DNA from: Candidatus Gastranaerophilaceae bacterium
GTDB taxonomy: Bacteria; Cyanobacteriota; Vampirovibrionia; Gastranaerophilales; Gastranaerophilaceae
Direction: 5' to 3'
Assembly: GCA_045586965.1 (NCBI GenBank)
Contig: JAZNBJ010000037.1
Location: forward strand, 587-64,586
DNA length: 64,000 nucleotides
Position 1 is the stretch's first letter. Each line of letters opens with the position of its first letter. This document shows, one piece after another, positions 8,008-35,539 of this stretch. A model generated the notes under the pieces. It was not told where the DNA came from, ran no database searches, and saw only the letters and a list, made by a program, of their open reading frames with translations. The position numbers and the translations under genes were made by a program.

Positions 8008-8016
8008 CTTAACGCT

Positions 8017-8289
8017 ATGAACATATTAAGAAAAGCATACGATTCAATTAAACGAACTATTGAATTTGAATTTTTCAAACGTAAATTCAACAATTGGTTA
8101 GAAACCAAAGAAATTGAAATTTTAGATGAAATCAATAGAAATGATGCAAAAATAATAGAATATCTATCTGACGAACGATTTGGAACAGCATTCTCTTTTT
8201 TTAGAAATAAAACCGATCGAGAATATGAGTTGCAAGCATTACGTGACTATAAAAATTATGTTCTAAAAAAGATAAAGGATGGAAATTAA
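8017..8289 (+). CDS. hypothetical protein
   Basis: ATG..TAA ORF of 90 aa that overlaps the next gene by 11 nt. Confidence 0.5.
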   Translation: MNILRKAYDSIKRTIEFEFFKRKFNNWLETKEIEILDEINRNDAKIIEYLSDERFGTAFSFFRNKTDREYELQALRDYKNYVLKKIKDGN

Positions 8290-9247: not shown

Positions 9248-9734
9248 TTTAGAACAAGGAAAAAGAAACGCTGTTTTATTTTTACTACCGTTAATATTAA
9301 ATACAGACGATAACTATTTAAATTTATATAACAAAAGTTTATTAGGTTTTTTCTACAAAGACACAAATAAACCGGAATGGGAAGATAAAATAATAATAGC
9401 ATACGAATATAACACACCTCTACGAAAAGTAGATGAATTCTTTAAAAAAAACAAAAACAGTTTTGAATCATATTCAGAGCATATTGATGGAAAACATTAC
9501 AAAATCTATGCATTTACAGTTCCCTTTGAATTTAAGAAAGATTACAAACACTTAACCAAAGGAGATTACAAATGTTTATCGGTTGGCGCTGAAATTAAAC
9601 TCACACAACACTGGAATAACCAATATCTTGCAAAAAAGATAAGACACTATATTAGTGGTTACAAAAGTTGTTGGAATACGCATTATGATTTTGTAAAAAC
9701 AGGTATATTGAATTTAAACAACGTACCTGTATAA
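9216..9734 (+). CDS. hypothetical protein (last gene of the + strand module)
   Basis: ATG..TAA ORF of 172 aa followed by a terminator. The true start may be the second ATG at 9225. Confidence 0.5.
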   Translation: MKEMELNNSDNLEQGKRNAVLFLLPLILNTDDNYLNLYNKSLLGFFYKDTNKPEWEDKIIIAYEYNTPLRKVDEFFKKNKNSFESYSEHIDGKHYKIYAFTVPFEFKKDYKHLTKGDYKCLSVGAEIKLTQHWNNQYLAKKIRHYISGYKSCWNTHYDFVKTGILNLNNVPV

Positions 9735-9829: not shown

Positions 9830-12800
9830 TCACATCATTCTCTAAAAGCTTTCCATTTCTCGATCGATGTTTGACAAACGACCAATCTGTTTAACAACAG
9901 GGAATATTCTAGCAGTTTTGTTTAAAAGTTTGTTATCAAACAAATGTTCACCGCTCTGATATTCTTCCAATGGAGAAAATACTTGTGTAAATGCTCCAAT
10001 TATATCATTTATATAAGTAATAGAAGGGAATGGGTCTTTCAAAATCTTTGTGAATGACAATGGATTTACAAAGAACGTCAAATCTGTATATAACCTATAC
10101 ATATGATAGCGTATGTTGGAAACAACTACATTTGGTTCATCATCATCTCCTCCGGAAGAACCTAAAACAGAATATGCCAAATAAGAAAATGCGGCAACTC
10201 CGATTTCAACCAAAAATCTTATAAAGTCTGCTTTTTCTGTATTTGATAACTCGTTCCATTTTCTAGCCTGAATTTTTGCCTTTTCCAACCTTAATAAGTT
10301 ATATCCGACAAAACTAACAAGTGGTGCAACATACGGATTGTATATAAATGCATATTGTGCACCCCAACGATAAAAGCCTTTTCTATTATCCCCTAATATT
10401 TCATCGTAATATTCTGCAGCAAAACGTCTATTGAAGTTTGAAGCAATCCAGCGGCGCAAACTCAAACCCATTATACCATACCATTTTGATTCTGCTAATA
10501 CAGAAGCTCTATCACTATAATTACCATGTAACAATATAAGATTCTAACGTAGCTGTAAAGAAAAACTAGTGACATCGTCTCTATTAAAATTTGCAACTTT
10601 GTCATCTACTTCTAACTCCATGTCATCATTTATTTTAATAAAATCCAACATACTTCCAAGAACATTTCCATCTTTATCTTTTGCTTGAAGTTCTATAAGA
10701 CTTGCTAACATAAAACGAACTTGCATTTCATGTTCGCCAATGTGTGTAGTTAAATAACCATAATCGCTGAAAGAATGTCGCAGTAAACCTTTTAACGATA
10801 AGTTGAAATCAGAATCAAATATATTAAAGTATTCAGCTAATCTGTTGTATTGATTGTTTGGCACTAACTCCAAATAATCTTTTGCCATGCTAAAGACACC
10901 TGTAGCATATAACTTTGTAGCTCTTTTGTAAGACTTTAATGAAACGAATTGACCACACAAAGCTTCTTCCAATTGATTTATTTCTCCGACTAACGGATTA
11001 TTAAACAAACTGACCGGATTTAACATCATCACACGATTTGATGTAAGTTTAACCCATAGTTTTATTAACTTTGCAATGTCTACTTTATGTCCTGTTGGCG
11101 TTTCAAATCCACCTATATCTTCAAGACTATTACCATAAAATACAGTGTTTAACCAACCTTCAAATTGATCTCTTGTGTTTGTTTGGAATGAAGAAGTTCT
11201 CTCCTTTTGTTGATTACTTTTGTTCTTTCCAAGTAAAGATACCTTGTTTTTATCGTATGTTTTACGAGTAGATAAAACATTTGCTGTCTATAACGCAAAT
11301 GATTCTATTTCGCGTTTTGCCACATGTGTTTGCGCAGAATCATACCATTTTAGATATATTGTAGGCAAGTCAAATGATTGTTCGTCTTCGTTAAGTTCAC
11401 CTATATAAAACATAGGAACACTACGTATAGGATTTCCCTATTGGTCAACAAAAGTACCTCTGATTGTGTCATCTTTCATTATCAAACTACTTTGTTGAAT
11501 ACCGCTCTTTAAAGCAGAAACAGCTCCGTTTGCGGCAACGCGTTCCATTCCACGTTTATAAATTCCAGGTAATCTTCCGTTAAGACGCAAGTTTCTGTTA
11601 ATTTGAGAATCCATTTCTGAAACACCTTCTACCAAAACTTGATATAAAGCAAACTTAGGATCATTCGTTTGTTTTAATTGCATCATTTTATCATACTTCT
11701 CATTCTTATATAGAGTACGATCAGGCTTTCTGTACTTAACTTCAAGCTCATAGTCGGTTATTTCTAAGAAATCTTTTGTTTCAGAACTAATCTTTTCAGA
11801 GCGATATAATTCACCAAGACTCTTTCTTTGATTTACTGGGAGTTTTTCATTTTCTTTGATGATTTGAAGCTCTTTTTTTCTAACTTCTTTATTTTCTTCT
11901 TCTTCAAAGTAAGCGTTTAACAAGGATTCTCTTTCTTGATTGTATGCTGCAATATCGTGTATTGGGCAATTTACATCTAACCATTTCTTGAATTTCTCTT
12001 GTTTTTCAGCAAATGATAATTCTGACTAACTGTCAAATATTTCTTCTTTTGCTTTCCTTTCAGCATCTCTGTATTTTATACCTTGTGGAGAAATTAAGTA
12101 AACCTGACCAGTTTCTGATACTTCTACGAAATCTTTGTAGACATCTTTTAGAATAGAAGTGTTGCCAACTCCATATTTTTTCTAAAACTCTTTTACAGCC
12201 TTAGCCAGTTTTGCACGGTATCTGTTCACTTTCATTTGTTTTATTGACATTTTGTAATCAAACATCTTAACAAAAGCCTAAACAAACGGATCTTTTGAAT
12301 AATAAACACTGTCTAAGGATACAGACAAACCGCCACATTCAAATATGTTTTCAGCTATTTCGGATTGTTGTCTTAACCATTCCTTAGTTTCAAATTCAAT
12401 TTCTTCACGATTTTCTTCTATGTATTTTGCTACATACGCGTCTATATCTTTTTGAGATGCATTTGGATGCTTTTCTTTATACTTTTGAGTAGCTTCTTTT
12501 TTATATTTGTATTCTATTCTAGAGATGTAAGGTGTTATAGCATCTATAAACAGTCTGGTTCCCTCTGAATTGTAAGCAGCTACAATGTTTCTCTAAAGTT
12601 CAGAAAGCTTGTTACATTGAATGTCAAGAGCCCTAACACGTTCATCTCCAAGTATACTTCTATACTTGTGAGCAAGACCTGTTATGTCGTTTATAATAGA
12701 ATAACCGTTAGCGACTTCTCTATAGTCTTGTAAAACATCCAAATCCCAAGTAGCTTCATCTCCTTGCTTATAACGCTTTTCTATGGCATCATTTAATCGC

Positions 12801-15238
12801 TGCAACTGTTTTGTTGCATATTCTGCATACTTAAATAATGCCTCTAGTTCTTCTAATTCTGATATTTTTTCTAACAAGCGTTTTGCGTCATATGCTTGAG
12901 ATCTACTTCTTTTTCTTAGTTTCAAGATTTCGTGTTGAATATTCAAACGAGTGATAACTTTATCCAAAACCCTACGTGTATCCTTTATCATTTGAGTTCT
13001 TTTCTTAGCCTCTTCTTCTTTTATTTCAGAAAAGTCTTTAAATACACGAAGATTTACGTCATCTTTTATAAATTGAGGAGTAATCAACTCATAAAAACCA
13101 TTTTCTTTCAGTTTAGCTTCACCTTCTTTGTGAGTTAAATCTTCACGATATGCTCTATATATACTACTTATATAACCTGCAGTAACATAATCATTGCTAA
13201 TGTAATATGTTATAGGAATAATACCTTTTCTTGCTATCTTTATTCCTTTTTTCTCAAGCATTTTCGAGTATATACTTAACTGCAAATCATAACCGTCAGA
13301 CTGAGAAATTGTACCAAATTTTCTACTCAAAACATACTTAAATCCGTGTAAAGGTCTACCTTTTTCATTTTTATCTTTACCGTCTAATTTTAGAAGTTTT
13401 GTTTTGTAGTCCAAAAGTATATATTCACCAGTAGCCTTTTCTCTAACAATTAAGTCCGCAGTACCAGCAATACCTACTTCAGGGTCACTCAGCGTAACCT
13501 CAGATGCAACGTAATCATATTTCTCAGATATTTTATCGACAATCGCTTTAAAATACTTTATAGAGTCTTTTGCAAACATTTGATACACATCCTAAGGAAT
13601 AGGTTTATTCTCAAATAAACATTCCATTACTTTGTGAATGGCAGTACCTCTTTCTCTTGCATTTTTTGACATTTTCTTTTGAATGTCATCTTCTGCAGAA
13701 GGATCGTAGTCAGAGTAACCTATCTACTCCTTTATCATAGTAGTACGGATTAATTTCTTACCAGTTCTAGTATCTATATATAAACCAGTTTCTGGATCTA
13801 AAACAATACCTTCCTAAATTTCATTCAATATTTTACGAGCTGCCTCTATTGGCATATTGGTCATTTCTTGATGTTTTACTCCTGATAATATGTCTGATGT
13901 TTGTCCTAATTGTCTACGCTCTAAAAACGCATCAGTTATCTCCGCTAGCAGCATTTGTTTAGCAAGTTTATTTTTATTTAACATTTTTTTGATAAAATCA
14001 ATAAACTTCTGCCACCAATTGCGTGCCTTACCTTCCATCTCTACAGTACGAACACCAACAGCTTGTACAAGAGCTTCTTCACTACCAAATGTTTCTATAC
14101 CTTTTTGAACAAGAGGGGTACCTTTGAACATAGCAATATAGTAGTGAGCATATTCGTGTGGTATTGTATCAAGTCCAGATTCTAAATTGTCTATAAGTAC
14201 TTTTAAAGCATTTAAATCAATCTCACCAACATAACCTCCTTCTATAGAATCAACAAATTCTACAGATATTTCAGGGAATAATTGACGTAGTACCGTAGAC
14301 AATCTTTGTGATAAAGCCCATTCTTCTGTAGTAAAATGTTTTCTACGGTTATTTATACCAGTTTTCTTTTGATGATATATGTTATTATCTACAGTAGAGA
14401 AATTACCATTGTTGTCTATATGTTTGATTTGGTTTGGTTCGAAGACAACCAATTGTGTTTGTTTGGAACGATAGTCATCAGCATCATTGTCAGAATCAAC
14501 CACTGTTAAGACGTAACCGTCTGTATTTTCATCGCCAATCTGCTTTGCCCGATGTATAAAACTTTTTAAATCTTCCTGCACAGACGTATAATTGCCTATG
14601 TGCGGGTCAAAACCGGTTTCAATACCCTGCTGTTGTGCAACAATAGGGGTTTTTATGTTTAAAAACACAGGTAAAACTTCGCCGAATTCAACGTTGCCTG
14701 TGCCAAACGATTCTGGTTTTGAAGCGTATTCGATTTTGGCAATACGAGGATCAGTTATAAACCAGAATCCAGATATTTCTCTAGGTCTGTGTTCCGATCC
14801 AATCTTTTGTTTATCAAATATGGCAATGGGGGTGTTTGTGCGATTGCCGTGATAAACAACCAAAGGTTCACCATTCTCATCTACTACTTTGGATACATTT
14901 GTTGTATCTTCAGAAGTCCAATCTCCAAACCAGTTCTTAAATGCCTCAGAATACGTATTTGCTTTAGCTCTGATGGCTTTTTGTCTGTCACCGTAGTGAT
15001 TTATCAAAGACTTAAATAAAATAGATTCTGAGCCATTTGGAGCTTTATCTATAGGGTTACCCTAATTCTAATCCCAAATATCATATGCTGCATCCATTGC
15101 TGCTGCATCTGTACCTGTTCTCAATAGTCTGAGTTCTTTGTTCCTGAACTCTTCAATAGTTAACGGATTGCCACCTAAAGCGGTGACAATCTCGTTAAAC
15201 TCATTTCTTATTTGTTCATTATTTATATTTGGACACAT
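9830..15238 (-). CDS. giant polyvalent virion protein (about 1,802 codons): ART-like N-domain, HExxH zincin, PD-(D/E)XK nuclease
   Basis: The frame runs from ATG 15238-15236 to TGA 9832-9830 with 13 in-frame TAGs and no other stop, except a short out-of-frame stretch at about 12300-12435. Motifs: VVDENGEPLVVYHG (about 14850), HEYAH at 14144-14158, and GTADLIV...YILLDYKT at about 13403-13456. The track's apparent end, TAG 9842, is followed by RMM and then TGA. Confidence 0.7.
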
Positions 15239-15249: not shown

Positions 15250-18200
15250 TTAGCATTTTTCACTAGGTCTTTGTTTTTTAGTTTCGTTCTGATGTTGCTG
15301 TACAATGTCAGGGTTACTTTCGAATAGATTTAATTGTTTGTCACTTATAAATCTAGCTTTAAACGCTTTTTCATTAGTAATGTCAACCCCTTTTTCGTTT
15401 CTAAATTTCCAATTAGATGTTGTATGCACTTCATTTGGTATACCTAATCTTTGCGCAGCTATTATACCAGCTTCATCTACACCAGTTTGACCACCGCTTC
15501 TAATTTCAGATATTACTACACCTTGAGATTGAAGATATTTTAATGACTCTTCTACATACGAATTAACTTCTTCTTGAGTCCATCCTTTTCCAAACAAAGT
15601 GTATATACCGTTTCCGGCTATATTTATTTTCACAGGTCTATTTAAAGCTTTGGCTTTTTCTGCAACTTGTTCCAATTTTGCACGGTCTATTGTACGTTTA
15701 CTCATTCTAATTGGAGCGTACTTATTTTTTGCACTTTTTGCAGTAAGCTCTTCTCCACTTGTGCTAAAATCTTCTGCGAAAGCAAGGGTTATGTCTGACC
15801 AAACAGCATTGTCAATGGTTCTTTGTTTGTAATCAGAAGACCTTGCTGTAGTGAATCTAGTTTGTGTAGAAGTGGTTTTATTTGATTCATTATTTTGATT
15901 TTCTTGAGAATTGTACATTTTCACTCCGCTAAAATTTATACGATTTATTTCTTTTCCACCAACAGCGTCAAGTATTCGTTGAACAACAGGATTTTCCTCA
16001 TCACCAACGACTAATACCGAACGGTGTTCGTCAGAAACAGGAATAACATCATCTGTAGATGTAATCACATGAAATTCTTTATCTTTATATTCTGAATATT
16101 CTTTCATCAAAGATTCTGAAGGAATTCCACTTGGAACAAAGTAAACTACATCGGAAGCATCTACCGCGACATTTACATCAAACACCCGCATCACATCGTG
16201 TGAATTAGAATATTTAGAAAAATCTATAACTTCATCAGCAGGTATCATAGCCAAGGGAGAAATACGTTTAACAAGGGCAGCTTGCTGTTTTTCATCCAAT
16301 TCGGTGTGATTTGACGCAGAACTATTTGCATCTGCATTAAATAACGATTTAATGTTACCTGTTTTTGTATCAATATAACCGTCTGCTCTTAACGAGTAAG
16401 CCGATAATTTTGAATTTCTATATCCTAGTGGAGTTATTCTATAATAAATAGGATTTGCGTAAACATTGCCATTTTTAGCTTTTACTAAAGTAATGTCTCC
16501 TAATTTATATAACGTAACTACACCGTTTGCGTCTTTAAGTTTGATAAATTTTTGAAAGGTTCCTTGTTCTTTCTACATCAGTTCATATGAACCGTAGCTT
16601 ATGTAAGCAATAGATTTATCGTTGAAAGGGAACATTCTATTATCCGCCTTTATTACAGGAACTATTTCATCGTCACTTGTAGCAACCATTTCCATTATCA
16701 AATCTAACATTGATTGTGGAAGAGAGCCGTGTCCGAGTCTACTAGGATCCATTACATATTTAGAAATGTAATCATTGTATGTACCATAACTTCCAGCAGT
16801 AATATTTGCTAAATGTTGTGGAGGTAATAAATCAAATAAAGAAGTCTTGATCAAACCACCTGCATTTGAATCCGTACCAGCAGTAACATAAAACATATAC
16901 ACAGCAAAATCTTTTACCCATTGTACTATTTCAGGATTACTACTGTTAAACAAATCACTAATTGCCATTTGAACAGCGCTTTTTGTAGTTTCATCATTTC
17001 TAACATCATCGTTAATGTTAAAGAACTGAGGATTCTTACTTTCAAATAGAGGATTATATTTTACATTTAAGAAGAAGTCATCTCCAATTCCTTCTAAAAG
17101 CGCAGCCGTTTTGATTTTGTTAAATCTAGCCCCAACACTATTTGGTCCTGTAGTCAAACTTAACAAAGGAACTGTTGTTTCTGGGAATCTGTTGAACAAA
17201 TATTCATTGAAGAATGGTAATAGCATTGCTGCTTTTATTCTAGGTCCAACAACACGTAAGAAGTTTTTACTAAACCTTCCGTATTTTCCATATTGCTTAG
17301 ACAGTTCATCTGCTGTGTTTTTGTATATCTCGCTAAATTCAAAGATTGTTTGATTGAACGCATTAAACATTCCCAACACACCTTCTAGGTATTTCTTACC
17401 TAAGAATGTATCATTGAACAAAACTTCTGGGTTTTCAAAAGTATCGTTGTATGGGGACACAACACGATCCATTAACTGCATAAAGCTTATTATTTGATCT
17501 GCAGATATACCATATTTTTTTGTATCTATTTGAGCTACAGTTATTGCGTCATGATATGCTTGTGCTTTTTCATTCAAACGAATAAATGTATTCAAATATC
17601 TTAATTGCTGAGCATACCATTCTGTACTTCTTTGATCTTGTGGTACATCAGCCTGAGCCTTCAAGTAATCAATTTCCATTTCTTTAGCAGAAGCCATTTC
17701 AAAAACAGGTCTTCCAGCAAAATCAGTGTATTCGTATTTAACGAAATCCAAGTATCTACTTCCTTTACTAAGCTGCGGATTTACACCAATGTGACCCTGT
17801 TTCCAGTTCTACCAGTTTTTAGCAACAGAAACAAGCACAGGTTGAGTTAAAAACGCAAATGTATCATTGCCAAATCCAGCGCTGGTCATAAATGCGGTTA
17901 TGTCATATGTATAACCGTTTACATTCATTGCACCAATATAATTGTCTTTAACAGCATCTACGTGTGCATTGATCAAAGCTGATGTAATATCAAGAATATC
18001 TTCTCCGTTTCTGTCAAACAGTTCAGAAATACTCTTAATACCAAGATCTTTCAAAAAGTCATCATTTCTTAATTTAAGACCCGCCACTTGTGTAAAGAAT
18101 CGGAATACTGAATTCAACGCCATAGGGCCGATACCATTATCAGATCCTGCATTTTTTACCTTCTGTGCAGTTTGGAATATTGGATTTAGATAGTATCCGT

Positions 18201-21200
18201 CTACAGTATCATCAAAACTACCTTCTACACGATTTCTTTTGTCCATGAGACTTGTAGCGAAATCTTTCAACGGTGCCGTACAAACATCCAAAGGAGTATT
18301 TGCAGCAAGATAGTGTTCTTTTGACGTTAGAACAGCTTGATACATGTCTAGTAGACAATTTTGAAGCATTTTTTCGTCAATATTTTTTGTTGACTTTAAA
18401 ATATCATTCAAGTTATACTTAATTTTCTAAACCTTTCCATCCACAACTTCGTAATTTGGTCTTGCCAAGAACATCTTGTCAATATCGAAGTCAGAACCAG
18501 TTTGTGCAGTAATACCAGCCGGGAATGAAATAATAGATCCTCTTTGTGACGGGAACAAGTCTACAATTTCAACCGGTATTGTTGAGTTTTGACCTTGTGT
18601 TGGTACACGATAAGACAAAGCGAACAGTTCTTGATTTTCCAAAATAAATCTACGTTGATCGTCAAAGTTGTTAAAGTCATAACCTTTAATCTTTTGTTTT
18701 TTAGCCTACTTAATAATGTCGTCAAAGAAGGAGATAGACAATTTAACCTACATGCGTTGATTTATTGTACCGTCTCTCTTTATTTCACCAGGCATTAACA
18801 AGCGTGTGTCTTTATGCTTTTTGAGATTGAAAATGTTATCATATCCAACACTTGCAACTTGGAATAAAGGCATACCTGGAGTAGTGGTATTGATTACGGT
18901 TTTACCCATTTCCGCAAGTATACGAGATTGAATCCATGTTATGTTTGGAAGACCTGCAGGATGAATTCCGTATTCACCGTTAAATGTAGCCATCGCAGCC
19001 AATGTTTCCAGTGGCATACCTTGTGTTTCCGCCATGTCTTTTAGCTTTTCCATAAACTGCTGTTTGTCCACACCGTTTTCAGTTATACCGTACATTTTCT
19101 TGAATTTGGTATAACCTCTTTCTGTAAGTTCATCCAATAACGACTTATACAGATCTAGCATTTGTTTACCAGTTATGTTTGTACCGCCAACATTATATTT
19201 TGTAGATGGTTTTATATTCATCATTGCTATTTTCATAAACTGTGTTAACAAATCTGCAGTTTCGTTATGACTGGTTTCGGTATTCAACTGCTTACCAATT
19301 AATTCAAAATATTGTGATTGAATTACTGAATTGTTCATCGCTTTCTTGTTGAAATTTCCGTTTTCGTCAAATAATTCGAAGCTAGCAACACCACCAGATT
19401 TTACAGCACTTTCCAATTTAAGCATATCTATCTGTTTACTACGCATAAATTTCAAGATCTCTTCCATTTGATGTCCTTTTGCATATATTTTAAATATAGG
19501 GCTTAAAGACATTTTGTCATAAGTAGGAACATACAATCCTGATGCGTTATCAGCAGTTTCTCCATAATACACATACTTCAACGATGTTGTATGGAAACCA
19601 GAAGTAACTCCCAATATCCAACCTTTGTATTGATTAGCGTTTTTCGCTGGATCTTTTTTATACTCAGCTTCTCTTTTTAACAATTCGTCATAATTTATTT
19701 TTAATACAGCGCACATTTCACGAACAGCTTTTTCATTTCTGTTTACCAAACCATTAGGTCCTGTAATTTCATCGTAATGTTCTAATAAATTATAACAAGC
19801 TTCATCTACAACATTCCACTTACCTTCACGCTGTCTTAATTGACGATACATTTCTGCTGTTATAAATACACTAGCGTCAGTTGGGTCGTTATTTAGATAA
19901 CCTATGAAACGATTTACAGCATCTTCTACAGCTGCTTTTGCAAGCATTTCATCTGACAAAGGTTCTCCGTTTTCGTTAAGACCTTTTCTTCTTCCGTTAT
20001 TCGCGTGTTCTAGATACCTAGCTATCAACGGAGACTTTTTGGCATTCTTTGTTAGATTTTTATTTTCATCCAACAGAACAGTATAATCTGTTATTGGTGT
20101 AATTGTACCTTTAGATGCTATAGAAAAACCAAGATCAACATCTTCAACTACATTCTTACCCTTTACAGTATATCCAGTAACAACATCTGCTCCAAGAACA
20201 TTACGCATGTCTCCTTCAAACTTGGCTGTATTTACAACCAAACTTGTATTAGCGGTAACTACGTTGAACGTTTCAGAATCATTTAATCTGTCTTCATCGA
20301 AAGCGTTTAACATAGTACTCTTTTCTGATGTGATTTGTATTGTTGATGTAATACCACTATAACGCTTATTTACAGATGTGATGTCCTTGTGGAAGCCAAT
20401 GTCTCCAGATACAATTTTTTCAAACTCTAGGTTATCCATCATATTTGATAGAGTAAATACACCTATCGCCTTGTACAAAGTTGCTGAAGGAATTGCATCA
20501 GACTTAATTTGTTCTATTTTATTCTTTAAAGAAGGATCAATGTTTGCAAATAGGTTTTTAGGTAAATATTTGTTTTTCAAATCTTCTATTGCAACATAAC
20601 CTGTAGCTACATTAGGATTTACATCAAAAATTAAACCAAGTTGTGATAATTTCTTAGTGGTAATTGCAATGTTACGACGTAAAATTGTCTTTATTCCATT
20701 TTGATATTCATTCGCAATACCAACTGCAATCTTTCTTGCTGATAATAAATCACGATCGTGTTCAAACAAACCTTTTGTCATTTGATTTATTTGATCTTGT
20801 GTCAGTTTTATATCTCTTCCTAGGTTTTTAAAGTGCCTAAATTGATAGCCGCTACCTTGTTGCAAGTCAATGTGAAATGCACGTTTTACTATTCTTTGTG
20901 CACTTTCAGGTTTATTTACAAATTCAGCCTTTCCTTCTACGAAATGATATTGCTTCCTAAGCAAACGCAATGCTTTTGCTGCGTTTTCGTTTGTTTTAAA
21001 CAGTTCCTCTTGTTCTCTTGGAGATAGATTTGAAAAATCTTTTGCTGTGTATTTCTTTCCTGTAGCTTCATATATCTCTTGTAAGAACAATTCTCTTGTC
21101 TTCATAGCATCAGCTACAGCTAATATTTCATCAGCTAAGTAATCAACAAAACGTTTAACGATATTTCTGTTAATGGTCAAATCTTCATCAAAGTAGTGAG

Positions 21201-24200
21201 CTATGTCATTAGGAATACCTACAATTTCAGCAGCAAAACGCTTGTTTGCCAAAGACGGTATTGTGTGGTTACCTTCTAATGTGGTAGTGAAACGATTTAA
21301 AATATCCTCTATTTCTGTAATATCTATATCAGCTACACTTTCGTGGAAATCTTCATTAACCATTGTTGCCAATTTTGTATCTGCGTAAATAGCAGTATTT
21401 CCTCGTAATATTTCTTGTAACCAAGTAGAATTTACAGCATATGGATTTCTTAGCATTCTTTCACGCCAAGACTTACTACGAATTCTAGCATCAAATAATC
21501 TTGTTATGAAATTGTGTGAACCAATTGTATATATTTTTACACCCTCTGGACCTCTTTGAGAATTGTTTTTATAATCAGATGGTAATTTTTTTCCAATACG
21601 TTCTGCTAATACGTTTAAATCGCCTTTTAAATCAAACAAATCTTTTATTATTTTTGAACCAAATTTCTTTTTAGAATTTAATTCATTTTGCAAATCTGTT
21701 GTAGTTATACTTGATAATTTTTTCGCTACATTTTTCAACAAGTTAAATGTACCACTATCGTCCGACTTTGTTACAAGTTCTGCCATAGCAGAATGATCCA
21801 TGTTAAAGCTTATTCCGAAAGTTGTTTCTAACTGTTGCAGTAGATTTATAACAGACTTCTTGTCTGACGATTTAACAGACTTCACGGCATCTGCGAGTGG
21901 TTTTAATAACTGTCTCAAATTTTTTGATGAAAAGCCTACACTTTCTCTAGAAACAGAACCTATTGCAACTAATGCATTTTTGATGCCACGTTTCCAATGT
22001 ATTAACAAATTATCGTTTACTGCAGTTTCATCTCCACTACGAGTACTAGCTGACACATATTCTACATCAACCACCTTACCTTTATCGTCTACAATTTCTT
22101 TTGTTGAATAATCGTGATATGTAAAACGGTGTATGTGTCTAACGAAATCACTAAAAAATCTATTTACAAACGCTTGAGATGTTTGTTTGTCTGTCAACAT
22201 TTGATAAACTTGCATCACAGTGTTATCATTCATTTGATCACGATAACGGAATGCTGCAACTTTCAGTTTTTCAAGCATATCTTCTGTGTTTTCAGCAGTA
22301 TCTATTGAACGAGCCAATTTGTTGAACAATGCTGCAACATTACTGTAACGTATCAATCCGTCTGAAGTAAATTTAGCACCGCTTGCATCTTGTAAATTTG
22401 TATCTGTTACACTCCATATAAACATCTTCATGCTTACATCCAATGACTTAAACGCATCCTTTAGATAAGAATCTCTGTTTTTTGATATAGAATCAGTAAC
22501 AGCATTTGATCCAGGTTCTCCCATAAGATCAATGTCGTCATTTATAATCTATTCTGGGTTGTTTGTATCATCAAACTCAGCGTTAAATTGTTTGTCACAG
22601 AACTTAGTGAGTATCTCTTTCCAAGCGTCCCATTGCTTTGTTTCTATTATTTTTTCATATACATTTATCATATTTGACATCAATATGACAGCTTCGTATA
22701 CATCATCCTTATTGAAACCTGCTGGTAAATTTTTTAAACCAGACGCAACATTCTTTTCAAGTTCACTTAATGCCTTTTTATACGTACCAAGTTGGTCTTG
22801 CAACGCTTTTTTAACCGCTTCTGTATTTACTTGCAGTTTTCCATTTTCAAGAATTTGTATGCTACTTGTTCTTAACAAACGACCTAACAAATCTCTTTTT
22901 ATTTCGTCGTATTGTCTTGCGTTTTTAGCAACCTGCACGTCTTTGTACATTATTCCAGAGAACGGATTTGAATCTCCGTACACATTTTTGAACAGTTCTA
23001 AATTATTAGAAGTTGCTTTTGCATACGCATATCTACCGGCACGCATATCTTCAAACAATTTATCCATGTTGTGATACTTTGGAGTAATGTTCATGCCAGT
23101 GAGACGTCTTATTCCAGATAAGATGGCGTCATACAATTTCTTAAACTTTTTTGCCAAGATTCCAACGTGTTTTGTTTCAACATTGTTACCCTTGTCTTGA
23201 ATGTATACGGCAAATTGATCTGCTAAGAATTCTTCGACTTGTTTGTCGCTTTTGTCTTTTAATTCTTGCCATTTTTCTCTGGCGTCAGCGTACATTTTCT
23301 GTCTAGACTTTTCAGATAGCAAGAACAAACTTACACGGTGGAAAGACTCGTGATACAACGAATTCTTTGCTATTTTTCCACTTCTAGCGTCCTTGAAAAT
23401 TCTGATTCCATTAGATAAACACTCACCAAACACATAGATCATGGCCTCTCTAGAACTATCCCAAGCAGTTTCTTCTTCTGCAAATGTATAAACAGGGAAG
23501 TTTTCTCCAAGTATGCGCTTCACGTTTTCTAATGCTGTTGAATAATCTTCTTTCTCAACATGCTCAGAAACAAACTACAATACTGATGCAAACTTAGGAG
23601 AGCTACCAAATAATTCTGCAGATACTTTATAAATCAACTGAGGGTTTGACTCTATTAATTTAACTGCTTTTACAGGATTACTTTCAATACCTACCGCATT
23701 GTAGTATCTTGCGATTATATTCTTTATTGCATTTTGAACAGTTGCACTTTCTTTTGCATTTCTTGCACTCTATACTAATTCCGCAGCATTTTTTGTAGCC
23801 CATTCGGAAACATCCTTTGGTGCTACTTCGGATCTTGGGTTCACTGCAGTTTTAGGTTGGCTTTGTGGTTGTAAACCTTGGTTAACGGCATCTGCTGCTG
23901 TAGGGGCCTGTCTTTCCATTCCTCCTAAATCAGCTAAAGGATTTATTCCAACACTTTCATTTCCTGTTTGTGCAAGTCCAGCCTATTGATATAAGCTTTG
24001 TCTCATATCTTCTGCATCTTCTTGTGTCAAATTATCAGAATACTCTAGGACATAATCGTCAATTAGCTGTTTCACAGTTATTGTATTTCCAGAAGCATCT
24101 TTAAGATCTTCTTGTGTGACATCTAACGAAAAGTCTACATCTGAATTAGACCATCTCAAAGGTATTGATGTCTAAACTGAAGAAGTTACGTGCACTGGCT

Positions 24201-27200
24201 CTTGGAAAGGAACCATTCTTGTGTTTTGAGCTACAACTCCAGTTGTTGCAGATCCACCTCCAATGACAATAACAGTTCCGTCGGGTTGTTGTATGGTGCT
24301 TCCTGCAGGAAGTGTTGAATAATCTACACCAACAGCAGAAGCTTGTGTTTGTGCCGTTCCTTGTTGTGCCTATTGAGTAGGCTGTTGTGTCTTCTGCATT
24401 TTTGCAGTATCAAAGTATGCGGTAATCATCTTACCTTTTTCATCCAAAATAGGATTATTATTTTCGTCAACCAATACAATTGAAAGACTTTTTCTTTCAG
24501 CCAAACCAGAAACAAGACCGTGGAATTTACCACCACGTTGAATACCCCATCCTTCTTTAACACCTTCACCTTGCGCATATCTTACTGCAGCTTGATTTTC
24601 CGACCAAGGTACACCACTAGGTTTACCTTCTTTATCCAAGATTGCTGCGTAATACTTTTTATTCGTATCTAATAAATCCGAAACTTTATTTACAAAATGA
24701 TCAAAAATATCAAATACTTTTGTAACATATGTTGCGGCATTATCACCTGCAGACAATACAGACAAACCAGTTGTTTTATCATTTGACCATTCTACTGCTT
24801 CTTCTCTTGACATTTCTTCTCCAAGCTACTTTCTTGCATTCGCAGCAGAACCTTGTTGGATTGGATCATTTGGTAATCCTGTGAATTTTCTATCTGATCT
24901 GTAACGTATATATACGCTAGGATTTACAAAGATGTTAGAACTTTCATTTGTATTTAAGTCTGTTTGCAACCATCCGTTGTCAACTACAGACGCAACATAA
25001 TTATCATTCGCATCTTCTTTAAAAATAACATTTCCCTCTTTTGTTATTTCTAAATCATTTCCAACTACAGCACTTGTGTTTGCTAACTTTTTAGAATCCA
25101 CACGATATGGTTTGTTTTCCATTATGAATTTGACAAAATCAGCAAAGTTGTCATTGTTCAAAGTAGAAGTTGTACCAAACCTAACATCGCCAGTATTCTT
25201 ATTAAAGTATAGTAAACGACGATAATTGTTGTCATTTGGATTATTTATAATAGCATCTGTTCCTGTATAAATAAATCTGTCAATAAGCTGTTGAACTGTC
25301 ATTTGAGTTTTTACAGTATATCCGTTGTCTGTAGTAAACTCATTTATAAACTGATCCATCTTCAACTTACCCATTCGTACAGCATTAAATATGTCTGCAA
25401 TAAATGTAGCCATATTTTCATCCATATACTTAGGATTAAGTTTTACAGGATATTCTTTATGCGCTGAATTTAAGAATCTGGGTAAAACCAAATATATTGC
25501 ACCTGCAGTACCGCTTGCATTTTTCATGGTGTGTTTTTCACCCTTTTGGTTATAGTATATAATAGATGCTCCTCCATCGGTATTAAATGAACCAAATGCA
25601 AATTGTAAAGGAGCTGTATCATAACCAGCAAAAGCGTCATCTGCTTTTACTTCTGCAGCAACATCTGATATGTATTTCTTAGTTATTTCTTCAGAAAGTT
25701 TATCCTTTTCTTCATTTACAGCTTCTTCTACTCGATCAAGTATAATTCCTGGAGTAATACCAGACTTTAATACTTTGTCGTTCTTTGTGGCTTCGTCACT
25801 ATCTTCCTTTTCTTTTTTGGTTTTACTTCGATACAAACTATCTAACACAGGTTGCAAGAAAGAATGAACTTGAACTAATTCGGTTAAGTAATCAACTCGC
25901 TGTTCTTTTGTTTCGTTTGCATTACGACCTTTCATTCCCGAAATCTTTTCAAGAATTGTATCGTATGGCTTAAACGCTTCTTCTAACTGTGTATCAAGAT
26001 CTGTTTGCTCTTGTGGATCTTTTTGTGCCTTGTCTTTTGTATTACGAGACAACCACTTCTCTAATGAGAAGACATATCTTCCGTTTTCGTCCTTTTGCAA
26101 ACCTAAAGATTTAACTTCTGATATTTTGTGGTTAACGTGATAAGAAACGGTATTAAAGTCATCATAATTGACAGCATTTCCGTTTGGTGTTGAAGAACCA
26201 TAAGTAAATACCTGAGCTATGTTAGATGGTTTAGTTAACATTGAGAACTTCTTATTGAAGAAGTAATCTGTTAAGGTTTCTTCAGCAACTTCTGCTTTAC
26301 CATGTTGAACAAACTGATAACCCAAATCCTTTAATTGCGAAATAAATTCTTGTGCATTCTTAGATTGATTCAAAACTTTTTCAAAATCTTGAAACATCTT
26401 TGTTGCTTTTTGTATGCTTTCTGGAGTATTTGAATACTTTAATTCTTCATATTCTTGTGTCTGCTGATTTCTTTCAAACACACGAATTGAAGAACTTCCG
26501 TTAAACCATCTTCCTTTTATTGCGTCTTCTACTGTAATTTCAATAGGTGTTGCAAATTCAGAATTATCTGTATTTTTTGTGTATGTCAAGAAAGATTCGG
26601 GAGACACGCTTTGAACAAACTGTAAAAGTTTTTTTGCACGTAATCTTTGTGATTCTTTTGGAGATTTTGTATTTCCAGCAAGACCCAAATTCTTTCTTAT
26701 ATAATTACTCCAAAGAGTATCTAATTTTGTAGCTCCGTGTCCGTAACGTATTAATCCTTTTACAACAGAAGATAATGCGGTTTCACCGCCATCAAGTTGC
26801 TTGTTTAAATCTTCCTCAGTAACATCAAACTGAAGGTCTTTTAACAAACTCAAGAATTCTTCCATATTATCTATTACACGTGCTGTAGCTTCAACTGAAG
26901 CACTTGTGTAATATTGATTAATCTCTGATGCAGACATTTGTGTTCCATCATCTTTGGCAAAGAATCTTGATTGAGGATTTACTTTTGTCTAAATTGAATA
27001 ATCAAAATCACCGTATACTATTTCAACTTGTTTATCTGAAAAATAAACACGGCTTCTAAAAGAATTTTCAACTTCTTCTTCTGTAAAACCTTCTTTTGAA
27101 AGATCTGCATCTTTTTTAACAAGCTTATAATTGTTTAGCAAATCGTGTATTAAACCAGCACGAGCGTTAAATTCCTCATTGTTTACAGTTTCCGATCTGC

Positions 27201-30200
27201 TCGCAGATGAGAAATCAGACAAAACAACAAATGTTGATTGTTTACCGGTTCTTGGTTGAAACATTAAGGCTGTTAAAGGAAGTGAATATACCAAATTTTT
27301 ATAAGCTTCCTTTGTAATAGACACACCATTGTAATTTGCAGCAGTTTCTTCATTCTTTGCAAACTTTTCAAGAAGTTCATATAATTCTACAGAGTTATAT
27401 TGTTTATTCTATTTTAACTCAGCTATTTTTTCACCAAGCTTATTGAAAAACTCTACAGCTTTGTATCTACTATATGTTTCACCTTTTACAGTAAAGTGAT
27501 CATCTTTCACATATTTTTTAGCTTCTTGTACAGAAAAATATGGTGCTGCAATATGACCTCTCCAGAACCTAGCTTGGTGATAAGGGTTGAGCAGCTTTGT
27601 TCTTGCGGCTTTGTTTGATTGTTTGTCATTTGGTATTGGGTATGCCTTTACTTTGTTTACTTTACCCATTTCAGCCTGAACAAGCTTTTCTCTCCAAGTA
27701 GGCTTAACCTTTTCAGTTTCTTTTTCGTTTTCTTCGAAATCAAAAACATCTCCGGTAGAACTTACCAATTCTGTTCTTAATGCACGTTTTTTCTTGTTTT
27801 CAGCAATGTCGTTTGCAACAAGATTTTCTAATCTTGTTAATTTTGACGCATACAGAGTTTCTTTACCTTCGTTGTTTACAGTTTTTAAAGAAGATAACCA
27901 TTCTCTATTTTGATCCGTCCGCATTATTATTTTGTTTTGTGACGGATTTTCTTTTTGTCTGGTTAAATTGTCAGCGATTACATCAAGGGTTTCAACAATC
28001 TTGTCGTTTGCCTCTTTATTTTCTGGATTTTCTTCCGAATCTTTTGCCAACCTTTCCTTTTGTTTTGCGACATTTTCCAACAACTTATCTATATGTTTTT
28101 CATCGCTGGCGTCACTAACTGGTTGCAATGTTAATATTAAACCTTCATTTTCAGAATATTCTGCTTCGTTTTGTCTTACAACATATCTGTTTCCAGAAGC
28201 ATCTTGCCAAACAGTATGCTCTGCTTTAAATCCTGCATTTTTACGTTGAGCTCTAGCTCTAGACTCTGCAGAAATGCGTAAAACACGGTCTAATTGCTTA
28301 GCCATGTTTTCAGATATATCTGTAATTTCTTTTAATATTTTCTTTTCTTCTTCGGAAGCATTTTCAAATTGATCGCCTTTCTAATATTGATATTTAATGC
28401 GATTTGTAGCTCTACTTACGTATCTAACATATTCTTCAGGAGTATTAGTTAACTCTGCGCCTCTGTTTAGATATTCTGCAAAAGATCTAAGATAACTATT
28501 TTCTGGAATAGAATCTAACAAGGTATGCAGCTCGTCTGCAGTACTGGTTATTTGCTCATTTATATAAGCTTGTTCTTCTTCCATTTGTTGTTTAGTCATA
28601 TCCTAAACCTTTGTGTCATTGATTACAGCAGCACCTTCTTTTACTTCTGTATTTGTTTTAGCAGCTTCATTTGACGCATCTGCCAAATTATTTTGTCTTG
28701 TTTGAGTTTCTTTGTATTTTGCAACAACATTTTTTACAAAATCTTTCTTTGCATCTTGATACTGCATGTTTTTTAAGTTCAAAAGAGTACCTAACACAGT
28801 AATGTCTGAATGATCTCTTGCGACTTTTTCGATAGAATTGTTGTCTGCCAAAGCTTCAGCAGAAAACGATTGTGCCGCATCGGTTATAACATCTGACAAG
28901 ACCAAATCGCTCTTTTTTATATCAGGGTGAGCTGTCATTAAATCTCTAACAATCGCATCACGTTGCATTTGTAACTTTGTCAAATTTGTAATGTATGCTA
29001 AAGCTGTTTCAGCTTCTTCGATATGCGATTCTTGTGACAACATTTTTTTCTCTGCCATAATCTTTTTGATTTCTTCCTATTTTTTTATGGCTTGTGATTT
29101 TTCCTGAACATGTTGTATTTCTTTATTCAAAAGAGATAATGCAGCAAAACTTCTAAAATCAGCTTCGTTTAGCTCGTCTTTTGTGAACTTAGCATCCTTT
29201 ATTTCCTATTGAAAAGTTTCATCCTAGCTACGATCCGTTACTACTGCTGTAATTTTACCGCCTTCTTTTTCATATTCTTTTAATATTTTGTTAGCCTGAT
29301 CCGCTTCTTTGTTTGCATTATAACCCAACGCCATATACAAATCAACATCGTCATCAGACAAATCTTCTACATTTTGAAGTTTTTTACGCATTTCTCTGCT
29401 GTAACCAATCATAGCAACAGCTTCTCTTTTCTATTCTTCTATATGCTCATCTACTTGATCTTCTGTTGCAGGTGTTTGGCCATCAGTTAAAACGGTAGCA
29501 TCTAAATTGTATTTTTTTGTTTTTCCATCTGGACCAACACTCTTTAATTCTTTTTTTAATTCATCAAGAGCTTCTGTCCACGCTCTACCCGAAGGAAGAC
29601 CTTCTCTTACGTTTTTAAAGAATTCCTTACTTCTGTTAACTTCATCTTGAGTACTCAATGTATACTCTAATTGCTTTGCGACTTTTGGTATAGTCAACAA
29701 AGTTTGAATTTCTCCATTCGCTCTAGATACCAACGAAGCTGTACCAAACGGATTAAACAGTGATAATAAGAAACCACTACCCATTTCTTCAAACAGCTGT
29801 TGATCATCTTTGTATTCAGGATATAACCCAAAAGCAGCACCCATTGATTTGGTTCTTAACCATATATCGTGACCAAGATCTGTAAATACTTGTCCGTCAG
29901 CAACAGCATCTAAAAAAGTTTGATTTACATTTTCATCTGCATATTCTCCATTCAAATATTCTTTTACTAAAAAATTCTGAGCACCTTCTTCACTGGCTTC
30001 AATCATACCACGTATGGTTGTATCTGTAGCCAACTTACGCAAATCTCCAAGTAAACGTTTGTTTCTGGCAATAGCACCACTGGCTGCAACATTTAGACCT
30101 GCCTTAAATCTTTTTGCTGCAGCTACTTTCAATGCGTTTGGAACTAATTTACTAGTTGCTGTACCTAATGTTTTTTTAGCAATCGCTGTAAATGGTTTTG

Positions 30201-31242
30201 ACAAAGAACCAACGGGCAAAAGATAAGTTAAATCAGACACAGCTTCTCCAAAGCCTAATGCATTATTACGCTCAAATAAACGTCTTGATTCTACATACGC
30301 ATCCTTTGCAGACTCTGCAAAACCAGAGCTAAATGTATCCAAAGTAGGATCAGCAAGTGCAGCTTGTATAATTTGTTGTGGGGTCATTGTGCTTGTGTCT
30401 ACACCACGTTCTTGTAGTTGAGCTGATACTTTTTCACGAACTTTGTTCATGTCTACCTTCTTATCTTCTGCGAGTTGCATCATTTTTTCGTAGTAGCCAT
30501 TGAACGCTTCCATATGTGATTCCTCTTGTCTTGATTTAACGTTTCCTAAAGCTCCGCCAAGAAGACCTCCCAATACAAATCCAACTCCAGCGCCAATACC
30601 GCCACCCCAAGCACCAATCGCAGCACCTGCTTTTGCGCCAGCCCAAGCGCCACCAAGACTGACAGCTTGCCATACAGGAGATGTCATTGAAGTACCAGCT
30701 GTAGCAGGCATCTTATACATCCAATTTCCCCATCCTTGCACAGCCTCATTGCTTTTGTTGGTATAGTATTGAGAAATATCGTAATTATTTACACCAAAGA
30801 GTGCGTTATTATCACGCTGATCCTTATTGTGAAAATAACTAGCTTCTTCTTCTGCAAAAGTTTTATCCTACTCATCAATTATTTCTTGTAATTCTTGATT
30901 TGTAGGATCCTTTTTTTCTGTCCATAGCCCAAGCTTTCTCAAAGTACTAATACCTTCGATCTTCTCATCCTCATTGTCACTTTGAGCTAACTTTGCATAC
31001 TTTTTATTATTTGTAGCTTGCAACATACGATCTTGATTTGCCTACATTTCACCTTCCTATACAGAACGGTAATAGGAAGCGGCAGCATCGCCGAGATATT
31101 CATACCAATTATATCCCGGCGCGCTAGCGTTTCCTCTTATGTTTTTTCTATTTAGTAGACTTGTTGTGTCAAGATCAATGTCTGTTCGTCCGTAACGAAT
31201 ACCCTGCAAGTAATCTTGTAATATTTCAATATTATTGTCCAT
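15250..31242 (-). CDS. giant 5,330-codon ORF containing the crAss-type virion RNA polymerase module, fused to membrane, zincin and SLOG-like modules
   Basis: The frame runs from ATG 31242-31240 to TAA 15252-15250. All 14 gaps between ORF-track pieces, read codon by codon, hold 23 in-frame TAGs and no TAA/TGA. Motifs: a glycine-zipper TM segment (about 30530-30700), HESFH at 23338-23352, GSDFDIDK at 18478-18492 (the DxDxD metal site of crAss-like/YonO-type RNAPs) and SGGQTGVDEAG at about 15465-15498. Confidence 0.8.
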
Positions 31243-31246: not shown

Positions 31247-33235
31247 TTATCTTAAAGCTCCACTTGGAGTATAATTTTTTAACATCAAATTTGCATCATC
31301 TCCAAAAATTTGATTATCTTGAGACTTCGTTGTACCATATTCTTTTTGGTACATTGAGTTACTTCTCTTTTTATCTATATTTGCCATTGTATCTGGAATT
31401 ACAGTTGTTATTTTGACGGCAGCTCTTCCTTCCTCGTCGTGTGTTAACTCATATCCAGCTTCAGCTAATTTACTACTCAATCCTCCACCTAACCAAGAAG
31501 ATAGTGTAGAATAACCAGGAGACCCATCCCATATAGGAATTGCCACTTCTACTACGTAATTTCTACTTCCACCTGATTCTAAGATTCCGGTAATTTCTTG
31601 CACATAACCAGTTCCTAATTCACCGGCAGCAAATCTTTCTTCTATACTTATGTTATTTGTATCTGTTGGGCCACCAAACCAACGACCTCTATCCAATTGA
31701 ATAGACTCTAAATCAATTTGATTTGTACCATCTCCAAAACCAGACGCAGAAGCTCTGTTACGAAGATATTGATTTGTGTTATATATAAATGATCTTGGTG
31801 ATAATGTTTTTGAACCACTTATAGAAAAACCAAGTTCGTTTTTAGACTTTCTTTCTCCAAACAGTTGTTCATTTAAATCAAATCCTGTCATGTTGGAAAC
31901 TTTTTGCGACATTTCTTTTAACGCATATCCCCACATGTGTTGGAACGAAGGAAGATTAAAATGATAATCTCCTCCAAGAAGTTCATTAGACGTATCTGCT
32001 TTTAACAAATCAAAGATTGACTTATTTAATTCTTTTTCAGACATGTTACCGTTGTCTTGCTGTAAAACGTATTCTTTCATTAAGTTTTCGTACATTCTAC
32101 CGTAAGCTTCATCTTGTGCTTTACCTGCAAGATTTACGTATTGATTGAAAGTAAAATCACGTTTCTGCTCCAAATCTTTATTGTCTGGATCTTCATTTAA
32201 CGCTTCTGTTAACTATAACGTAGCAAGTTGCAAATTGTCTAAATCTTTTGTATATTTTCCAGCGAACTCAGGATCCATATCAAACATTGTTTGAAGAATC
32301 GCCTTTCGTTTATCATCTCCTTCTTTGCGCAAAGCATCTTCTAATCCTATCGCACCGGTCGCGTTAGCTTGTTGTTGAGCTCTTGCTTTTGCGATTTCTG
32401 TATTGACGTCAAGTTGTGTCTTCCATGCATTAAATCCTAAAGTATCATCAATTGGCGTAGATACTATTTTCTTACGTTGTGCACCAATAAGGTGTTCCAT
32501 CAACTTGTTATCTGCATCTTCTCCATACAACTGTTGATAACGTTCTCTCCACGCAGCACCTTGTGGGGTGTTTATTATTTCTGTATATTGCAAAGAATCT
32601 GCAATATCTCCGTAAGTAATAGCATTCCATCCGCTTGTCCAAGGTCTTACTTCGTTTGGATTTAAAGGGTTTCTATTACCTCCGTAGTATGTCGGTTCAA
32701 TTCCTTCAACATATGGACTTCCTAATTCTTCTAACGATTTATACGGCATTGGAGAAAGTGTTGTCATCATTCTATCTTCTCCAAGAGTATCCCATTGCGA
32801 TACATTTATTTTATCCATCCAAGGAGCGTACCTGCCTGCAGCAATTAGTTTTGCTTTATTGTCTTCATAGACTTCGAATGCTTTGGCATTTTGTTTTAAT
32901 CTGCCCATATCGGCATAATTCAGATTATTTATAGCTTGTTGTAACCCAGCTCTAAATGCAGAATCCTTCATTGCATCGGGATCTGATGCAGCGCGTTCAA
33001 TGTATTTTCTAATTACAGGGTTATTGTAAGTCAAATCCCCCCAACGTTGCATATCTATATCTGACAACGATTGAAATTCAGCCCATGTTTTTTGTTGTGC
33101 AGCCAATTCTTTTCTAGCCTCATCTACTGCAGCTTTCTAAGTAACTCCGATCTTATACAGTTGATCAAAGTTAATGGGTACATATGTATCTATGTACCCA
33201 ATTTCTGTTGGTTTATAAAATCTATTTACTGTCAT
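31247..33235 (-). CDS. virion/ejection protein, function unknown (662 aa)
   Basis: The frame runs from ATG 33235 to TAA 31247 with in-frame TAGs at 33137 and 32213. It joins track ORFs 31247-32173 and 32213-33106, which share a frame. The ATG lies 2 nt after the upstream TAA. Confidence 0.7.
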
Positions 33236-33237
33236 AA

Positions 33238-35538: not shown

Positions 35539-35539
35539 A

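Follow-up and report, generated by a model that had tools for sequence, protein, structure and literature searches.

The window considered here is a 64,000-nucleotide (nt) stretch of a contig filed under Candidatus Gastranaerophilaceae bacterium (JAZNBJ010000037.1, assembly GCA_045586965.1, positions 587 to 64,586). It carries a giant open reading frame (ORF) on its minus strand, running from an ATG at 31242-31240 to a TAA at 15252-15250. By direct codon count, 23 of its 5,330 sense codons are TAG, the frame lacks TGA, and its only TAA is the terminal one. This bears out the single 5,330-codon frame, open across 23 TAGs, that an initial annotation had described from the sequence letters, with the strand being the minus one. 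On the plus strand, the interval 15250-31242 begins with TTA, ends with CAT and contains 285 stops, for which reason that reading was discarded. The ORF constitutes a single late gene in a crAss phage resembling the Suoliviridae, and its product has 5,330 amino acids (aa). It appears, from the comparisons below, to join a cargo body like crAss001 gp47 and phi14:2 gp67 to a zincin-like module, a virion RNA polymerase (RNAP) of the phi14:2 gp66 type and a C-terminal SLOG domain. The order along the chain is a Gly-rich hydrophobic segment, a body of unknown fold, a conserved middle domain, a linker, the HExxH module, the RNAP and the SLOG domain, at the following positions of the window:

15250..31242, minus strand: whole giant ORF, 5,330 codons and a final TAA, the 23 TAGs being read as Gln (codon count; a single ORF in relatives too)
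30523..30654, minus strand: Gly/Ala-rich hydrophobic segment, a putative membrane-inserting glycine zipper, aa ~197-240 (hydropathy, Pfam, PHROG)
25579..30522, minus strand: N-terminal body in the position of crAss001 gp47/phi14:2 gp67, aa 241-1888 (no recognisable domain)
24403..25578, minus strand: conserved middle domain of unknown function, aa ~1889-2280 (blastp and phmmer to the cr4_1 and cr55_1 giants; jackhmmer E~1e-89)
23743..24402, minus strand: Q/S/T/P/G/A-rich low-charge stretch, a probable flexible linker, aa ~2281-2500 (composition scan)
22609..23637, minus strand: zincin-like HExxH module, aa ~2536-2878 (HESFH at 23338-23352, Glu2671 at 23230-23232)
22567..22605, minus strand: junction between the gp47-like part and the RNAP part, aa ~2880-2892 (ORF break in the relative L006; offsets to gp47, gp50 and gp66)
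15973..22569, minus strand: gp66-type virion RNAP module, aa ~2892-5090 (catalytic DFDID at 18478-18492)
15370..15858, minus strand: circularly permuted YpsA-type SLOG domain, a lineage-specific addition, aa ~5129-5291 (Pfam, PHROG)

The giant gene is separated from its neighbours by intergenic gaps of 4 and 11 nt. When TAG is read as a sense codon, the minus-strand block 9830-64000 resolves into tightly packed genes, and under the standard code it falls into fragments. TAG terminates none of the 27 late genes and makes up ~17% of their presumptive Gln codons, and the plus-strand genes (98-9734) have no in-frame TAG. The identity of the codon was assessed as a likelihood from substitution patterns between the giant protein and six relatives. 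Gln was the maximum-likelihood residue both for the TAGs of the window (n=87, +10.4 nats over Glu) and for those of the relatives (n=133, +16.4 nats over Lys), and the late genes are thus predicted to translate TAG as glutamine. Such code-15 usage has been published for crAss-like phages (PMC7886860), a group in which it has been validated by proteomics (PMC9523058). TAG density is uneven across the late genes in 39799-63960 on the minus strand, ranging from 0 to 39 per 1,000 codons: the gene at 41963-42424 has 6 TAGs in 153 codons and that at 54365-56380 has 16 in 671, and several genes, including all four in 61305-63960, have none. One TAG of the giant gene (aa 2898, 22549-22551) sits at the junction between the gp47-like and RNAP parts, with an in-frame ATG (aa 2907, 22522-22524) nine codons on. 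A regulated stop and restart at this site was considered and rejected, as the arrangement is not conserved in relatives and is about what chance would give at this TAG density.

Four plus-strand ORFs lie antisense within the giant interval and are regarded as spurious, none being conserved. Only one of them has similarity in relatives, where it is broken by stops. An antisense ORF of 180 aa (22532-23074, plus strand) overlaps the zincin-like module and the junction region; it is not taken to be a gene, since its similarity echoes the sense strand and it carries one to four stops in four of five relatives. No internal repeats were found in the giant gene, and no Rfam family was detected in the 64-kb window.

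The RNAP module was identified through its C-terminal sequence. A phmmer search of the Protein Data Bank (PDB) with the last 2,030 aa (3301-5330) returned 6VR4 as the sole match (E=4.9e-24), covering gp66 residues 1036-1768, with GSDFDIDKM identical residue for residue. The DFDID within GSDFDIDK falls at aa 4251-4255 (18492-18478), blastp aligns aa ~3765-4598 to both gp66 and crAss001 gp50, and conservation in relatives extends to ~aa 5090. An RNAP core of the T7-like N4 type was not recovered by the same PDB search, which missed the N4 gp50 entries though they are present in the database (9pnt). As in phi14:2, crAss001, cr4_1 and cr55_1, the gene follows the muzzle and cargo genes within a late virion/cargo operon. 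The giant protein is therefore predicted to contain a gp66-type two-barrel virion RNAP, and the crAss-type polymerase and DxDxD site proposed in the initial annotation stand, with the motif at the position given there. The comparison with phi14:2 gp66, crAss001 gp47 and their neighbours that it had suggested was also carried out, and the modules map onto both operons.

Upstream of the polymerase, little is recognisable. Pfam and PHROGs, searched with the giant protein in five pieces of ~1,100 aa, yielded almost nothing beyond the glycine zipper and the SLOG domain. The N-terminal 2,555 aa have no PDB match and ~2,500 N-terminal residues match no Pfam family, in line with the more than 2,500 motif-free residues noted initially. 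The segment at aa ~197-240 is the only hydrophobic segment of the whole protein in a hydropathy scan. It resembles Pfam Gly-zipper_Omp (E=0.0014, 18.9 bits, below the threshold of 25) and matches PHROG 16692 and PHROG 6056, one of which is annotated as 'internal virion protein'. An N-proximal hydrophobic segment is also present in crAss001 gp47 (aa ~106), phi14:2 gp67 (aa ~172) and the closest giant homologs, and is absent from the RNAP proteins gp50 and gp66. The N-proximal transmembrane glycine zipper of the initial annotation is thus a real hydrophobic, Gly-rich segment, whose transmembrane status is putative given the sub-threshold Pfam score. The body that follows (aa 241-1888) has no Pfam, PHROG or PDB match and is collinear with relatives at 26-43% identity. 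The N-terminal part is equated with gp47/gp67 on three grounds: its place in the gene order, the shared HExxH module and the N-proximal hydrophobic segment.

The HESFH motif lies at aa 2631-2635 (23352-23338), where the initial annotation had placed a zincin, and belongs to a module with a conserved gluzincin signature. Among 23 module sequences from diverse loci (15-43% identity to that of the window), the only invariant columns are H2631, E2632, H2635, E2671 and A2674; in a 39-sequence alignment the same five are invariant, together with Y2651. Gluzincins are recognised by an HExxH motif followed by a conserved Glu in a subsequent helix (Iyer et al. 2017, PMC5512222). In a profile search of the PDB, the best family was the Pro-Pro endopeptidase Zmp1/PPEP-1 (M34), at a marginal E=0.08-0.22, in an alignment that places HExxH on HETAH and EExLAExF on EEFFAESF. 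Scans of each member of the HExxH alignment against Pfam gave no consistent family.

Structure prediction, which the initial annotation had recommended for the protein, was run on the HExxH module only. An earlier model from a three-sequence alignment had a predicted local distance difference test (pLDDT) score of 59, and the fold search made with it was set aside as meaningless. With a deeper alignment, AlphaFold2 gave a confident model (pLDDT 91.2, predicted template modelling score 0.86) with a zincin-like order of elements: a helix at the N-terminus is followed by a beta-sheet, then comes the helix with HExxH, and Glu2671 sits on a helix further on. Foldseek found nothing significant for this model in the PDB: the best match had E=0.8, and the weak tail included M32, M4 and M1 gluzincins at E>=0.8, with N4 gp50 at E=2. 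Among predicted viral structures, it strongly matched cr4_1 (E=1.6e-11, TM 0.74) and a dozen more Crassvirales giants. No significant match to any characterised peptidase was obtained by Pfam, PDB profile or Foldseek searches. The module is best described as zincin-like, its metal-site signature being intact, rather than as a member of a specific peptidase family.

The module is not specific to the fused state. Giant aa 2625-2681, including HESFH, align to the C-terminal end of crAss001 gp47 (aa 2151-2204, with its own HExxH at 2157), and the module is equally conserved in that stand-alone protein. In loci L031 and L049 it instead sits N-terminally in the RNAP ORF.

The C-terminal SLOG domain is recognised both by Pfam (PF12694, 29.6 bits against a gathering cutoff of 26.2, aa ~5129-5210) and by PHROG 10774 (E=2.9e-30). 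Among the fetched loci it is shared by L007 only, and it recurs in three giant homologs (P0049, P0101 and P0104).

Fused genes of this kind are common in relatives. With the RNAP core as query, 80 loci were recovered from IMG/VR. In all of the ~20 relatives with 50-64% core identity, the frame is open (with TAG as sense) to the end of the fetched flank, over at least 4,400-4,700 codons. In more distant relatives that use the standard code, the ORF runs without interruption for 4,990 aa (L029), 5,154 aa (L036), at least 5,331 aa (L044), 5,347 aa (L048) and 5,149 aa (L085). Because the frame is kept open in both sets, missed stops are unlikely. In IMGVR_UViG_3300035498_000174, two fetched pieces merge into one ORF of 5,221 codons with 14 TAGs, collinear with aa 44-5086 and with the same hydrophobic segment, YHEAFH and GSDFDIDK; in L007, a single high-scoring segment pair at 43% identity spans giant aa 628-5298. 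Other IMG/VR loci have split RNAP genes of 2,100-2,500 aa.

An exhaustive HMMER search with aa 2557-2897 against 1.84 billion representatives gave 184 homologs at E<=0.001. Faster searches, with a single sequence or the 23-sequence profile, had given one to two matches, for which a word prefilter is the likely cause. Counts of length and motif cover 152 proteins, drawn from the 150 matches listed (of the 184) and three found earlier. Among these, 96 are at least 3,000 aa long, 74 at least 4,000 aa, 18 at least 5,000 aa and three at least 6,000 aa, the longest of the matches listed having 6,581 aa. By strict patterns, YHExxH and GSDFDxD occur in one chain in 67 of the 152. The closest among the matches listed have 5,340, 5,302 and 5,331 aa, and in one three-way fusion (P0032, 6,272 aa) a gp65-like part is joined as well. 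The spacing from HExxH to DFDxD is 1,620 aa in the window and ~1,400-1,630 aa in fused relatives (the L007-L029 series, others, cr4_1 and cr55_1).

Where the gene is split, the break is not always in the same place. In L031 and L049 it precedes the HExxH module, in crAss001 it follows that module, and L006 has breaks at aa ~1935 and ~2885. Such differences between lineages fit a history of recurrent fusion and fission at linkers. The initial annotation had looked to homologs with separate genes divided at module boundaries as a refutation of its reading; such homologs exist in some lineages, and they reflect evolutionary fusion and fission rather than a fault in the sequence. Its statement that crAss-like RNAPs have roughly 2,000-2,500 aa and separate neighbours holds only for the cultured phi14:2 and crAss001 (genes of ~2,000-2,400 aa), and not for the fused Suoliviridae. 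Its premise that the fusion is unusual is not supported, given the single coding sequences (CDSs) annotated in cr4_1 and cr55_1, the proportion of long proteins among the matches listed, and the literature. RNAP genes 'up to ~6000 aa' are given as a hallmark (PMC10136315), and the phrase "a single huge polyprotein, likely cleaved" appears in Drobysheva et al. (bioRxiv 10.1101/2020.03.07.982082). The fusion is not new, being already in public data and literature; this gene stands out for its length, which is towards the top of the range known so far, and for the SLOG domain added at its C-terminus.

The genes on either side of the giant gene are as follows, the upstream block as a whole occupying 31247-39802 and having blastp matches to phi14:2 gp71, crAss001 gp44, and cr4_1 gp24 and gp25:

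9830..15238, minus strand: ortholog of gp65/crAss001 gp49/cr4_1 gp27, 1,802 aa, 13 TAGs, a separate downstream gene (blastp)
31247-33235, minus strand: cargo-position protein, a separate upstream gene
33238-35538, minus strand: cargo-position protein, 766 aa, a separate upstream gene
35540-39802, minus strand: muzzle/stabilization protein, a separate upstream gene

The fusion to neighbouring cargo proposed in the initial annotation is accordingly correct for the gp47/gp67-like body, which is joined to the RNAP, but not for the C1/C2-like cargo proteins (31247-35538) or the gp65-like protein (9830-15238), which are separate. The 1,802-aa gp65-like protein contains an ART-PolyVal domain (PF18760, aa 120-277, E=1.2e-22) and a second, different HExxH at aa 361 that is conserved in phi14:2 gp65, cr4_1 gp27 and cr55_1; this second HExxH corresponds to the 'Zincin-like domain' described for gp65 by Drobysheva et al. 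(bioRxiv 10.1101/2020.03.07.982082). By its predicted ART and metallopeptidase-like domains, this neighbour is a classic 'polyvalent protein' in the RNAP operon. The SLOG domain of the giant and the neighbouring ART hint at a pre-packaged function related to NAD+/ADP-ribose. The 766-aa cargo-position protein has long Gly/Ala-rich hydrophobic stretches at aa ~35-115, like the segment of the giant, and weak matches to the transmembrane region of crAss001 gp45.

The replication genes (1041-9247, plus strand) are 60-86% identical to those of cr4_1, the primase reaching 86%, and this places the phage in or near the Suoliviridae, the family of cr4_1. The RNAP and cargo block (9830-39802, minus strand) is only ~25-42% identical to that of cr4_1, a contrast that may reflect either a very uneven evolutionary rate or module exchange. 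A megablast search of the ORF against 50,697 phage records gave zero matches; this is therefore not a deposited phage.

By homology with phi14:2 and crAss001, the product would be made late and packed inside the capsid as a virion cargo (polyvalent) protein, the giant chain would leave through the tail either together with the DNA or before it, and transcription of the early genes would fall to its RNAP module. In phi14:2 and crAss001, gp66 and its counterpart are packaged virion RNAPs that transcribe early genes (Drobysheva et al., bioRxiv 10.1101/2020.03.07.982082, for phi14:2). The hydrophobic N-terminal part probably contacts the membrane or an ejection channel, and fusion would impose a fixed 1:1 stoichiometry and co-packaging on parts that are separate subunits elsewhere.

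The best overall explanation of the locus, and one that can be held with considerable confidence, is a code-15 crAss-like late gene that fuses a gp47/gp67-like protein to a gp66-type virion RNAP and a SLOG domain. Some points weigh against it. Packaging, ejection and activity are predicted through homology at 21-33% identity, and homology of aa 1-2500 to gp47/gp67 could not be demonstrated beyond the HExxH module, local jackhmmer searches having reached neither protein. No tRNA gene, and so no suppressor tRNA(CUA), was seen in the 64-kb window; because the late genes need TAG suppression, the suppressor must sit elsewhere in the genome or be supplied otherwise. In the TAG-recoded L006 (a Logan contig, ERR14839968, 2928-18939), the region consists of three ORFs in overlapping different frames. 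These breaks, at points where homology continues, could be sequencing frameshifts, true fission or programmed frameshifting, and some lineages may use frameshifting or be genuinely split. The L006 breaks and the missing tRNA, along with the fact that the window is one metagenomic sequence only, also speak for an artefact, in which several genes would have been merged by an assembly or sequencing error or by misreading TAG as sense. That explanation is effectively refuted. With this base composition, 5,330 codons free of TAA and TGA would arise by chance with P ~1e-142, and the continuous ORF recurs in the ~20 independent relatives and in those with the standard code. Public databases hold many called proteins of 4,000-6,581 aa. 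The late genes throughout require TAG as sense and none ends in it, its maximum-likelihood identity is Gln, and code 15 has the proteomic backing mentioned above (PMC9523058).

Given such a fusion, the fate of the chain can be pictured in different ways. It may be that the giant is a self-processing polyprotein whose zincin cuts in cis, in the capsid or after ejection, and frees a gp66-like RNAP and a gp47-like protein. This is a published hypothesis (Iyer et al. 2017, PMC5512222; Drobysheva et al., bioRxiv 10.1101/2020.03.07.982082), and for this locus it is a tentative one, although several observations suit it. The invariant HExxH...E is probably catalytically competent, the modelled topology is zincin-like, and a probable flexible linker (aa ~2281-2500) lies directly upstream of the module. 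Free gp66 of phi14:2 is active, its crystal form is self-inhibited and proteolytic activation has been suggested (bioRxiv 10.1101/2020.03.07.982082); autoprocessing by such domains has been proposed with reference to the processed P1 DdrB (PMC5512222). Nevertheless, the module and its invariant residues are kept in gp47 of crAss001, a phage that encodes its RNAP (gp50) separately, on the opposite strand, and the N4 virion RNAP, with an analogous HExxH domain, is reported to be packaged unprocessed and is described as one tethered chain. Conservation in a stand-alone protein and an uncleaved N4 polymerase weigh mildly against a zincin that exists to cut the fusion; nor was a conserved cleavage motif found, or a significant match to a characterised peptidase.

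The giant could instead remain intact as a tethered ejection protein like that of N4, which is plausible while falling short of probable. Its Gly-rich segment would then insert in the membrane or ejection channel, the long body and linker would cross the envelope, its RNAP would refold in the cytoplasm while still tethered, and the zincin-like module might act on the cargo, the host envelope or host proteins, or be regulatory or structural. The single hydrophobic segment, near the N-terminus, kept in giants and in gp47/gp67 and absent from the RNAP proteins, is consistent with this. So is the likeness of a membrane segment, a long spacer and an HExxH beside a polymerase to N4 gp50, with its membrane-associated N-terminal domain, linker, RNAP and C-terminal domain with HExxH; the fused state is also the majority among the matches listed. 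Against it, the two-barrel RNAP of the giant is unrelated to the T7-like one of N4, the HExxH modules of the two proteins lie on opposite sides of the polymerase, the RNAPs of phi14:2 and crAss001 are not covalently tethered, so that tethering is not essential across the order, and the transmembrane status of the segment is putative, its Pfam score lying below threshold. A more specific version is rather unlikely: the Gly-rich segment would serve as an anchor, either in the envelope or in the ejection channel, the linker and the body of ~2,300 aa would reach to the cytoplasm, and the tethered RNAP would start early transcription at the entry site. What probability remains goes to processing by another protease or to other fates. 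On balance, we lean slightly towards a fused protein with no obligatory cut by its embedded zincin.

As a discovery the giant gene matters little, fused RNAP genes of this kind being a published Crassvirales hallmark. It is a divergent example, with identities of ~25-30% to annotated and 36-47% to unannotated relatives, and provides a clean, fully collinear reference for the fused architecture with a precise module map. The invariant zincin residues H2631, E2632, H2635 and E2671 offer targets for mutation, and the contrast between fused and split lineages frames the question of the field, namely whether the chains are cut and what the zincin-like site does. If the chain is uncut and tethered, membrane-tethered, ejection-coupled transcription would be convergent in two unrelated virion RNAP lineages, and the invariant zincin site would have a role other than processing.

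Among known systems, the nearest counterparts are the single-CDS giants of the Suoliviridae, cr4_1 gp26 (YP_010112556.1, 4,491 aa) and cr55_1 gp_05964 (QOR58155.1, 4,551 aa), which are labelled 'hypothetical protein' in their records. They share the gene order of muzzle, two cargo genes, giant and a gp65-like gene of ~1,800-2,000 aa, have YHExFH ~1,430-1,620 aa upstream of DFDxD, and show collinear similarity from giant aa ~1880 to ~5016; stop-codon recoding is required in cr4_1 as well. However, the giant proteins are only ~23-33% identical, that of the window is ~800 aa longer, with a longer N-terminal body, and its SLOG domain has no blastp counterpart, the alignments stopping at ~aa 5016 and 4826. 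The phi14:2 operon has the same order of gp67, gp66 (PDB 6VR4) and gp65, with a homologous RNAP core, and in both phages the gp65 ortholog is a separate gene with its own HExxH. In phi14:2, though, gp67, gp66 and gp65 are all separate and gp67 lacks HExxH, whereas the chain of the window has the zincin-like module in between.

In crAss001, gp47 (262 kDa) has YHEAFH...EE-x-x-AE near its C-terminus as well as the N-proximal hydrophobic segment, gp50 (277 kDa) has DFDVD, and gp49 (154 kDa) matches the downstream 1,802-aa gene. All three are detected in virions as RNAP-associated cargo, but they are separate genes, with gp50 and gp49 inverted relative to gp47, and there is neither a fusion nor a SLOG domain. 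The N4 gp50 protein (3,500 aa) is likewise a virion-packaged, ejected multidomain chain with an RNAP, a conserved HExxH domain and a membrane-associating N-terminal region. It differs in its T7-like rather than two-barrel RNAP and in having its HExxH domain after the polymerase, on the C-terminal side. No homology to N4 emerged at the sequence level, and Foldseek of the HExxH model places N4 gp50 at E=2 only. More broadly, the giant fused RNAPs of the Crassvirales are an instance of the virion-delivered 'polyvalent protein' theme (PMC5512222).

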